Positions 18,001 to 21,000 of a stretch of 64,000 bases of DNA are shown one piece after another. The DNA is taken from NCBI RefSeq assembly GCF_057098645.1, contig NZ_CM169472.1, one strand, 5' to 3'. Every line of letters begins with the position of its first letter. Position 1 is the stretch's first letter. The position numbers are program-made.

Positions 18001-21000
18001 TTATGTTCAGATAATGCCCGATGACTTTGTCATGCAGCTCCACCGATTTTGAGAACGACAGCGACTTCCGTCCCAGCCGTGCCAGGTGCTGCCTCAGATT
18101 CAGGTTATGCCGCTCAATTCGCTGCGTATATCGCTTGCTGATTACGTGCAGCTTTCCCTTCAGGCGGGATTCATACAGCGGCCAGCCATCCGTCATCCAT
18201 ATCACCACGTCAAAGGGTGACAGCAGGCTCATAAGACGCCCCAGCGTCGCCATAGTGCGTTCACCGAATACGTGCGCAACAACCGTCTTCCGGAGCCTGT
18301 CATACGCGTAAAACAGCCAGCGCTGGCGCGATTTAGCCCCGACATAGCCCCACTGTTCGTCCATTTCCGCGCAGACGATGACGTCACTGCCCGGCTGTAT
18401 GCGCGAGGTTACCGACTGCGGCCTGAGTTTTTTAAGTGACGTAAAATCGTGTTGAGGCCAACGCCCATAATGCGGGCTGTTGCCCGGCATCCAACGCCAT
18501 TCATGGCCATATCAATGATTTTCTGGTGCGTACCGGGTTGAGAAGCGGTGTAAGTGAACTGCAGTTGCCATGTTTTACGGCAGTGAGAGCAGAGATAGCG
18601 CTGATGTCCGGCGGTGCTTTTGCCGTTACGCACCACCCCGTCAGTAGCTGAACAGGAGGGACAGCTGATAGAAACAGAAGCCACTGGAGCACCTCAAAAA
18701 CACCATCATACACTAAATCAGTAAGTTGGCAGCATCACCTCATTCTAATACCAATAATATCGCCATTATCGCCATATATTTTTTCTGCACTCCCGGCACC
18801 ATAATATTGGTTGAAGCAACGAACTTCGTTTGTTACCTCTTCATTGCTTTGAGATGTAGTAAACATCTTCAGGACTTTTGTTGCATCCTCAGCATCTTCA
18901 TATACTACAGCGTTACCCCCTTTGCCAATAACATTACCAGCTAGCAGCTGCATCCCTTACAGAGGATAAAATACGACTGTCAGGAGAAGTCAGGTTTCTG
19001 GTTAAAGAATTCCATGAACACCCCAAATTTACAGAAGATGGTGATAGCATACATTTCAACCTTCAAAATGAATCAATCTTTACTTTCTTAACAAACATCA
19101 CCATGACATGACAACAAAAACCGGAGCCGGACTCCGGTTTTTTGTGAACCCGTCGGCTATTTCATCCCGCCAACATTTTCCCACACCCCGTCAGCACGCA
19201 GGATTTGCAACGGTCTTACCACGCACTGTATCTGCTTTTTATCCGCATCCAGTATCACCACCTGCGTGATTACCCTGTCCTGCTCCGGAATAATACCATT
19301 CTCATCGGACTCCAGGATGTCTGCCGGCCCCAGACGCAGTTGTGCTGTAAGCGACTGCACGTGTTCACGGCCATCATGCTTTCCGCAACCACACAGACGC
19401 TCCATAAGCTTTCTCAAAATATTCATGTCATTCTCCTGTTCTGCCTGTATCATTGCCCACTTCATCCAGTCCCTTAACATCCTGCCACGGCCCGTCGCCA
19501 AACCTGACCTGCAAATGCTGAAAAAAACCCTGAACCCGTGTGGCATCTTTGGGGTCAAGAAAGGTCAGTCCGGTGATGAGTGCGCCATCTGTATCCGGGA
19601 ACCAGCCATTGCTGTTTGTCTCAATAATGTTTCCCGGCCCCATACGGAACCGTATTTGCGTCTCCCCCGGGTCGCCCTTCGGCCCCTGAGGTCCGGTTGC
19701 CCCTACCGGGCCAGCCACACCTGTTTCTCCTTTCGGTCCCTGTGGGCCTGCCGGGCCTGCTGCCCCGGTGTCTCCCTTTGGACCCTGTGGACCTGTACTT
19801 CCTGTCAGCCCGGTCTCTCCCCGCTCTCCCCTGTCGCCTTTCGGCCCCTGCGGGCCTGCCGGACCAGCATCACCTGCCGGTCCCCGTTCGCCGGTTGCCC
19901 CGACAGGGCCGGTGTCACCGCGCTCTCCCTTATCACCCTTCGGCCCCTGAGGACCCGCGGGCCCCTGTTCCCCCTCTGGCCCGGGAGGTCCCACCACGGT
20001 GGGGATTCGGTTTACGGCGTCTTCCGCCGCTATCCTGCTTTGTTCCGCTGACTGTGCGCTTTCTGCTGACTCCCGGGCTTTTTCTGCTGCGGTCGTTGCA
20101 TCCCTGGCTGCATTACCGGCTGCACTTTCTGCCGTCTTTCTTGACAATTCAGCTTCTGCTGCACTTTGTAATGACTCACTGGCTTTTTGAGCGGCCGCAG
20201 AGGCCGAGGACGAGGACGCCTCCTCTGACTGCTTTGCAGCGGCTGCACTTTCTGCCGCCTGCCGGGCTGACTCCGATGCATCCCCTGCTGAAGTGTCAGC
20301 ATTTGCAGCGCTCTCTTCTGCCTGACTGGCTGATATGCCGGCATTCCTCGCGGACGTCTCCGCCTCTCCGGCATTCTTCTTCGCCTCCTCAGCGTGACGC
20401 GCCGCTTCTTCCACCATCAGTTCAAAACGACGCAGTGCCTCCGGACGGACGTCATCCTCCGTCATGGCACCGAGAAAATCATTCAGCGTACCGGGTCGGG
20501 AATCTTCATACACGGTGATGGTCCCGGCATGTGACGGCGGGAATCCTTCCACCAACAGAATGACGCTGTACTGACCGTACTCAACGTCCATGCTGTAACG
20601 ACCGGCTTCATCCGGATTTTCAGAGGCCACCGTGTTCACCACCACCGTGCTGCTGGTCCGTCTGGCTTTCAGTTGAATGGTGCAGTTCTCTACCGGTTTT
20701 CCTGTGCCGTCTTTCAGTACACCTGAAATCTTTACTGCCATATTCACCCCACAAAAAAGCCCGCCTGAAACGGCGGGCTGTCATAACACTGTGTTACCTG
20801 GCTAATCAGAACTTATAACCGACACCCACGATGAAACCGTCAGTGCGCCAGTCGCCACTGCCGGAGCCTTCATAAGCAATATCAATGGCCACGGATTCGG
20901 TCGGGTTAAACTGCACGCCAGCCCCCCACGCCAGAGACGTGTTGCTGTGGCGACCGTCATCACTTCCGGTCAGCACATCGTGCGTTTTCCCCTTGTTGTC

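Follow-up and report, generated by a model that had tools for sequence, protein, structure and literature searches.

PfC-S, a small paralogue of the tail fibre tip encoded directly after the side tail fibre gene of a lambda-like prophage

The collagen-like prophage tail fibre EPclA was characterised by Ghosh et al. 2012. Its isolated C-terminal domain, PfC, was a trimer by size-exclusion chromatography with multi-angle laser light scattering and acted as a trimerisation module; in the fibre, a C-terminal knob ~7 nm across was seen (PMC3368898). Recombinant EPclA made alone in laboratory Escherichia coli was a folded trimer, and Col-PfC refolded reversibly (PMC3368898). A polypeptide consisting of PfC only, 89 amino acids (aa) long, was described as ORF68 of Sp5, the Shiga toxin 2 (Stx2) phage of strain O157:H7 Sakai (Mondal et al. 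2016; PMC5155283). Here, we analysed its orthologue in a lambda-like prophage, a small gene called PfC-S in the following. It is located at 19157 to 19426 (minus strand) in a DNA stretch of 64,000 nucleotides (nt) from contig NZ_CM169472.1 of assembly GCF_057098645.1, hereafter the window. It lies directly after stf, the gene of the side tail fibre (19428 to 20747, minus strand).

In Sp5, ORF68 was listed among the non-essential late genes and was dispensable for plaque formation and lysogenisation in the laboratory, while the fibre gene, ORF67, was essential (PMC5155283). The same authors found no frameshift signal and suggested that ORF68 is an 'intragenomic reservoir sequence' (PMC5155283). 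GenBank records carry other labels, namely 'tail fiber assembly chaperone' in phage 434 and 'alternate tail fiber tip', made by a +1 frameshift (atfT), in AU6Stx1. The stf/PfC-S pair and its domain identity are already known, both from the published Sp5 case and from the product name given by the Prokaryotic Genome Annotation Pipeline (PGAP). Already in circulation, too, are all three functions that an initial annotation of the window had proposed for the small gene: a spare receptor-binding tip, a remnant of tip-switching recombination, or an assembly chaperone derived from the tip. Literature searches with locus tags and family names found no functional study of PfC-S beyond PMC5155283 and PMC3368898.

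ORF68 of Sp5 and its copies in 933W-type and lambdoid prophages of enterohaemorrhagic E. coli (EHEC) belong to the same family as PfC-S and have the same arrangement, after a PfC-ended collagen-like fibre. The fibre in the window is of the EPclA type and belongs to a lambda-like long-tailed prophage, whereas the Sp5 fibre is a longer EPclB on a short-tailed phage; we see no material difference. PfC-S is an ordinary, very common and already described part of the lambdoid prophages of EHEC and enteropathogenic E. coli (EPEC). The value of the present analysis lies in narrower hypotheses: PfC-S appears to be a protein under selection, and it is probably neither a relic, nor an invertible spare tip, nor a frameshift extension of the fibre.

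Paralogy with the fibre tip and signs of translation

The open reading frame (ORF) of PfC-S runs on the minus strand from an ATG at 19426-19424 to a TAG at 19159-19157 (270 nt, 89 aa), directly after stf and exactly as initially annotated. Its protein has an N-terminal helix (residues 3-11), a flexible Cys-rich linker (12-27) and a PfC domain (28-89). By BLASTP, residues 29-88 aligned with residues 366-427 of the fibre, with 22 of 62 positions identical (35%), 61% positives and E=3e-11. Smith-Waterman alignment of the two proteins gave z=20.7, with 300 shuffles as control, a similarity far beyond chance. Both segments covered the whole model of the Pfam family PF06820 Phage_fiber_C (1-64 of 64), with 122.4 bits for PfC-S and 118.4 bits for the fibre at a gathering cut-off of 25 bits. 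PfC-S also matched phrog_576 ('tail fiber protein'), a stand-alone profile of 89 positions, from end to end (1-89 on 1-89, E=2.4e-58). At the DNA level, the trace of the duplication was limited to a direct repeat of 27 nt with 78% identity (the 'GP..I.E' motif, 19310 to 19336 versus 19620 to 19646), found by repeat search and blastn.

These alignments confirm, at the level of sequence, that PfC-S is a diverged copy of the C-terminal knob domain of the fibre, and that the two segments are paralogous PfC domains. The initial annotation had read them as a duplicated distal domain and was right, both being PF06820 domains that BLASTP could align. Its placement of the likeness in the last ~60 residues of the fibre holds with a correction: the matching segment, in the fibre's own PfC domain (residues 365-428; 19464 to 19655, minus strand, from Pfam coordinates and BLASTP), stops short of the C-terminus and is followed by a tail of 12 residues. 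For the N-terminal extension of PfC-S (27 codons), no paralogue was found elsewhere in the window, and decay of collagen repeats was ruled out by inspection of the alignment.

The ATG of PfC-S lies one base past the TGA of stf. A Shine-Dalgarno (SD) sequence, AGGAG (19433 to 19437, minus strand), is found 6 bases upstream of the ATG, within the final stf codons, and this arrangement (AGGAG-N6-ATG) would set PfC-S up for translational coupling. On the 3' side, an intrinsic terminator hairpin (19116 to 19143, minus strand; CCGGAG-UCCGG-CUCCGG and then a U run) had a predicted RNA folding energy of -22.9 kcal/mol (z=-3.2), and a terminator is annotated at the equivalent position, 3' of the small gene, in the phage 434 record. 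PfC-S is predicted to be co-transcribed with stf, as the final gene ahead of the terminator.

Conservation was assessed in a set of 83 loci, made up of 80 IMG/VR contigs, phages 434 and AU6Stx1, and the window; selection of the loci required a match over the full length, and E. coli alleles are not independent of each other. The junction AGGAGAATGAC followed by ATG, which comprises the consensus SD, the six bases to the ATG and the fibre TGA between, was identical in 78 of the loci. All 58 distinct alleles of the small gene were 270 nt long, and their variable sites were mostly at third codon positions. The pooled pairwise ratio of nonsynonymous to synonymous substitution rates (dN/dS) was 0.125 for these alleles (codons 1-27, 0.23; PfC part, 0.09); the fibre's own PfC had a ratio of 0.24, above that of the PfC part of the small gene. 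Comparison of the window gene with the divergent orthologue of another locus, L084, gave dN 0.30, dS 1.35 and a ratio of 0.22. This contrast is independent and therefore removes the worry over selected, non-independent E. coli alleles. PfC-S appears to be under purifying selection, and we have high confidence, judging from the sequences, that the ORF encodes a separately translated protein whose sequence matters. An untranslated ORF, which would have spoken against the initial annotation, is not what the data suggest: SD and ATG are kept, the length is fixed and the dN/dS is 0.125, all of which support a gene.

Two patches of the small protein were variable. Residue 81 (window ~19184-19186), in the last beta-turn ADG-x-WEN, was represented by four different residues among otherwise near-identical alleles, and the second patch was the Cys/His-rich linker CGCGKHDGREH (residues 12-27). 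These positions may form a contact surface, or a metal or disulfide site.

Distribution and age of the pair

The pair of fibre and small gene was found in 697 of 5,426 complete E. coli genomes (13%), at a median of 12 copies per genome, up to 17 in one genome and roughly 7,500 copies in all. In the phage collection, the small gene was present in 296 records and the fibre PfC in 296, with an identical breakdown by organism. Records with the pair include long- and short-tailed Stx phages, phage cdtI, phage 2851 and phage 434. The copies of the small protein in phages were 88-97% identical to that of the window.

The pair occurred on three fibre scaffolds: the collagen EPclA fibres of siphoviruses, phage 434 included; the longer fibre of a podoviral (short-tailed) Stx phage, AU6Stx1; and a 212-aa non-collagen fibre in L084, which still ends in PfC. 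The small gene of L084 encodes 79 aa, has a different junction (AGGAGG, with a 14-nt overlap) and is followed by its own terminator. The small gene always accompanies a PfC-ended fibre, whatever the remainder of the fibre, and the sequences indicate that fibre tip and small gene are exchanged as one block across the three scaffolds. Block exchange of a fibre tip together with the downstream gene is a signature of fibre/accessory-protein modules, such as those of lambda, Mu, P2 and the T-even phages.

Between L084 and the window, the small-type domains were 60% identical and the fibre-type domains 43%, while cross-type identities were 28-35%. The duplication would therefore be older than the divergence of these modules. 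The N-terminal motif M-x-I-[LF]-K-K ... L-x-G-C-x-K was kept between the window-type and L084 small proteins. The two PfC copies appear to be maintained as separate lineages, of which the small one evolves more slowly.

The L084 fibre (positions 110-748 of a GCA_008387015.1 contig) is a stand-alone 'mini-fibre' of 212 aa that ends in PfC and gave a weak CBM_5_12-like signal. Both the PfN attachment domain and collagen are absent from it, and its own small PfC gene follows. By megablast, L084 had no match in the complete E. coli genomes and short partial matches alone in the phage collection.

When 1.84 billion representative proteins were searched with the profile, only 90 matched, for the most part fragments of E. 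coli type; the PfC family appears to be narrow. Two long proteins from this search, P0153 and P0167, had tandem repeats like the C-terminal half of PfC (e.g. 'GILRVRQADGTWKEIPAIKG' and 'IQWRLGAGAWQNLVAL'), and one of them also had a collagen domain. They could be remote relatives, with the PfC hairpin motif used as a repeat in other fibre-like proteins. A few long repetitive proteins (P0134, P0166) look like compositional matches.

Possible roles of PfC-S

The AlphaFold (AF2) model of the PfC-S monomer, based on an alignment of 12 sequences, had a mean predicted local distance difference test score (pLDDT) of 77, with 82-93 in the PfC part. In this model, residues 30-89 fold with confidence into a beta domain of five strands, residues 3-11 form a short helix, and a segment rich in Cys and His (13-22) is disordered. 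Two fold-search methods gave the Mu tail fibre as the best structural neighbour of PfC, and one of the Mu entries is titled as a complex of the Mu tail fibre and its chaperone. Fold matches in BFVD were weak (E ~0.01), the best ones being tail fibres. Sequence searches of the PDB, with the PfC-S protein and with the profile, gave no real match; hhalign of PfC against the Mu S' tip was not significant (E=0.24), and against Mu S it returned nothing. In the model, PfC looks like the distal fibre-tip fold of the Mu class, which is a resemblance and not a demonstrated homology. The Mu tail fibre tip works together with a downstream accessory protein.

Our preferred reading, to which we assign a probability of roughly 45%, is that the fibre knob has in PfC-S a partner that is not essential and probably trimeric. 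PfC-S would be a late protein, translated on its own, in which a free-standing copy of the knob domain comes behind a short helix and a Cys-containing linker. Because isolated PfC is a trimerisation module (PMC3368898), PfC-S probably trimerises into a small knob of its own, with a short helical stub. This knob would probably be a dispensable accessory that works with that of the fibre, perhaps as a cap or additional adhesin at the tip, or as a helper for the yield or stability of fibre trimers. In its genomic place and as a module, it would correspond to the Tfa, gpU or gp38 proteins of other fibres. If PfC-S matters on natural hosts and not on K-12, its strong conservation despite laboratory dispensability would be accounted for. 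A partner of the fibre is favoured because the fibre tip and the downstream gene appear to be exchanged as a block, and the separate clustering of small-type and fibre-type domains suggests that two roles have been kept apart for a long time.

Several points weigh against such a partner. Its interaction with the fibre and its association with the virion are both inferred. ORF68 of Sp5 is non-essential (PMC5155283), and the recombinant fibre trimerises and refolds without PfC-S (PMC3368898). When three copies of PfC-S were joined by Gly-Ser linkers, AlphaFold gave no confident assembly (pLDDT 41.5, predicted template modelling score 0.34). Furthermore, an adhesin in contact with the receptor would be expected to be more variable than the fibre knob, but PfC-S varies less.

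A more far-reaching and doubtful version of the partner reading is that PfC-S represents an unrecognised class of accessory: a free-standing, trimerising tip paralogue that would dock on the fibre knob or compete with it. For the PfC-tipped fibres of EHEC and EPEC prophages, it would take the place of a Tfa/gp38-type partner, and it would tune adsorption to natural hosts bearing O-antigen. The prophages with PfC-tipped fibres, lambdoid and Stx, are those that bring Shiga toxin and type III effectors with them. If PfC-S modulates adsorption or host range, it would bear on the spread of virulence phages and would offer a handle for engineering fibre specificity.

Other readings keep PfC-S as an active protein. 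The phage 434 annotation would make it an obligate Tfa-like assembly chaperone, and its placement directly 3' of the fibre gene (with a 1-nt gap or a 14-nt overlap after three different PfC-ended fibres), together with its exchange with the tip, follows the classical pattern of fibre-chaperone modules. The nearest solved fold, the Mu fibre with its entry in complex with a chaperone, points the same way. We nevertheless consider this role very improbable, because PfC-S matched no Tfa family (Pfam at E<=1 gave PF06820 alone, NCBIfam nothing), its Sp5 orthologue is listed as non-essential although the fibre gene ORF67 is essential (PMC5155283), and EPclA produced alone folds into a trimer, with reversible refolding of Col-PfC (PMC3368898). 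Of the tip-derived chaperone in the initial annotation, the obligate form conflicts with the published data, and at most a weak, non-essential form is possible. PfC-S trimers might instead be soluble decoys that act independently of the fibre, e.g. by occupying its receptor, be it at lysis (on debris or nearby cells) or while still inside the producing cell, and so sparing the progeny. Such a decoy would suit a protein that has the fold of the presumed receptor-binding knob without the PfN virion-attachment domain, that is conserved and co-expressed with the fibre, and that plaque formation and lysogenisation in the laboratory do not need (PMC5155283). We regard it as unlikely, since 35% identity to the fibre knob does not imply a shared ligand and an export signal is lacking (N-terminal 7-residue hydropathy maximum 0.5, versus 3.1 for Lpp). 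An exported receptor-blocking lipoprotein of the Cor or T5 Llp kind was rejected as well: L-x-G-C is conserved, but the 13 residues before it are charged, and the 7-residue hydropathy maximum before L-x-G-C (0.5-0.9, versus 3.1 for Lpp) does not indicate a lipoprotein signal. Among the anti-phage defence models of PADLOC, no match was found for PfC-S.

The remaining readings would make PfC-S a store, a leftover or an extension of the fibre tip. In a proposal of Mondal et al. 2016, made in the initial annotation too, the ORF would be a spare tip or recombination reservoir, a cassette kept for a new fibre C-terminus. Its domain is paralogous to the fibre tip and lies beside it, and chimeric database entries exist: in P0130, the small N-terminus is fused to a C-terminus with the PfC of a fibre, and in P0062, collagen is fused to a small PfC. 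However, 27 nt at 78% are too little DNA similarity for homologous exchange, and a silent cassette needs neither a conserved SD, ATG and N-terminal extension nor purifying selection at the protein level. No full-length fibre with a small-type tip was seen among the matches listed (the best 120 of 170, and 90 cluster representatives). The P0062 fusion was rejected as a natural tip swap, because it lies at a contig edge and its halves were ~560 bp apart, in the normal arrangement, among the best complete-genome matches listed. Around the tip, only inverted repeats of 18-20 nt at chance level were found, none bracketing it, and no invertase or recombinase is annotated within +/-7 kb of the tip genes in the complete genome of E. 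coli 2013C-4991. With both copies in the same orientation and their DNA too diverged, a spare tip used by inversion or recombination is not supported, and we find the reservoir in general a rather improbable role. Hitch-hiking of a non-functional leftover from an old 3'-end replacement with the fibre gene would fit the site at the boundary of prophage and effector island, where deletions are common, the many truncated or chimeric versions in databases and the dispensability in Sp5 (PMC5155283). It is hard to reconcile with the perfect SD and ATG, the fixed length, the third-position variation, the dN/dS of 0.125 across 58 alleles and the 0.22 at dS 1.35 in the comparison with L084, where the orthologue has another junction but still a strong SD. 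There is little chance, in our view, that PfC-S is such a relic, and the remnant of tip-switching recombination proposed initially is contradicted by the same data. No more credible is a fusion of the small ORF to the fibre as an alternate, extended tip, produced close to the stf end by a programmed +1 frameshift or by transcriptional slippage, as annotated for atfT of AU6Stx1, whose record notes a slippery sequence and a pseudoknot, both predicted. It is true that 68 of the 83 loci have 46 open codons ahead of the ATG in the frame of the small gene, and in the window this open stretch contains one slippery-looking site, a run of seven T (T7; GGT TTT TTT; 19521 to 19527, minus strand). But the frame is closed 13 codons 5' of the ATG in 10 of the 83 loci, in which the genes are intact; a run of at least six T (T6-T8) is present in 36 of 82 loci and lacking in 44 of 82; and a shift at this run would split the PfC domain of the fibre itself in two. 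The fibre gene ends in the context GAA-UGA-C, where GAA allows no re-pairing at +1 (AAU). With SD and ATG conserved, the sequences point to independent initiation, in line with the absence of a frameshift signal in Sp5 (PMC5155283).

Neighbouring genes and comparison with known systems

The stf gene and PfC-S form the end of a lambda-like tail operon on the minus strand, in which they follow gpJ (21473-24991) and a Lom/Ail gene (20806-21405). The ORF finder placed the start of stf at a GTG at 20747 (439 aa), whereas PGAP and the literature place it two codons downstream, at an ATG at 20741 (437 aa, MAVKISG...). The fibre matched PF08400 at residues 3-135, the collagen family PF01391 from residue 253 and PF06820 at 365-428, with a low-complexity coiled-coil region after PfN. 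It has the EPclA architecture (PfN-PCoil-Col-PfC), with a single collagen domain and 437 or 439 aa as against ~437 aa, on the basis of Pfam, PGAP and PMC3368898. Its residues 3-96 matched the Stf chain of Ur-lambda (9e7m_Ta).

Many direct repeats with a period of 9 nt were found in the collagen region of stf (window 19656-20000). In related loci (L003-L082), the fibre ORF was often short or broken, with an intact small gene; sequencing error in the repeats may account for some of these cases. A long antisense ORF (19266-20051, plus strand) is probably the complement of the Gly-X-Y repeats.

The complete genome of E. coli 2013C-4991 was 100% identical over a 601-nt query (window 19100-19700). 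PGAP names its stf product 'prophage tail fiber N-terminal domain-containing protein' and that of the small gene 'phage tail fiber C-terminal domain-containing protein'. In this genome, the prophage adjoins btsSR, and espV and nleA come after the prophage genes. The DNA shared with most Stx phages ended just past the terminator, the homology in another query starting at its position 63 (window 19062). Directly beyond the terminator, the window carries genes of the type III effectors EspV and NleA (14286-15494 and 16146-17387, both plus strand), as identified from the 2013C-4991 annotation. At the same site, other fibre modules carry NleB/NleC/NleH fragments (phage 434), or NleG and a SopA-like protein (L084). 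The terminator 3' of PfC-S looks like the border of a locus in which effectors are exchangeable.

An IS1 element (~17968-18735; insA 18409-18684, insB 17987-18490, minus strand) lies within window 17685-18953. It appears to interrupt a small effector ORF, leaving pieces at 17685-17966 and 18735-18953 (minus strand). We take the interrupted ORF to be an NleH-like kinase effector, from recognition of the sequence and not from a tool. The matching gene of 2013C-4991 is annotated as a frameshifted hypothetical protein and has no IS1.

Set beside the known systems, PfC-S shares its domain family with the PfC of the EPclA fibre, but it stands alone behind an extension of 27 residues and has no collagen triple helix. 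Like lambda Tfa, Mu gpU/U', P2 G and T2-type gp38, it is encoded directly after the fibre gene and moves with the tip. In contrast to the Tfa-type proteins, it is a paralogue of the tip itself, has no sequence relationship to them, and has a dispensable ortholog in Sp5 (PMC5155283). As in the Mu G segment (S/S'), the P1 C segment and e14, two versions of a distal fibre domain lie side by side. Unlike in these invertible tips, the two PfC copies have the same orientation, without inverted crossover sites or a nearby invertase, and the second copy has its own SD sequence and start codon.

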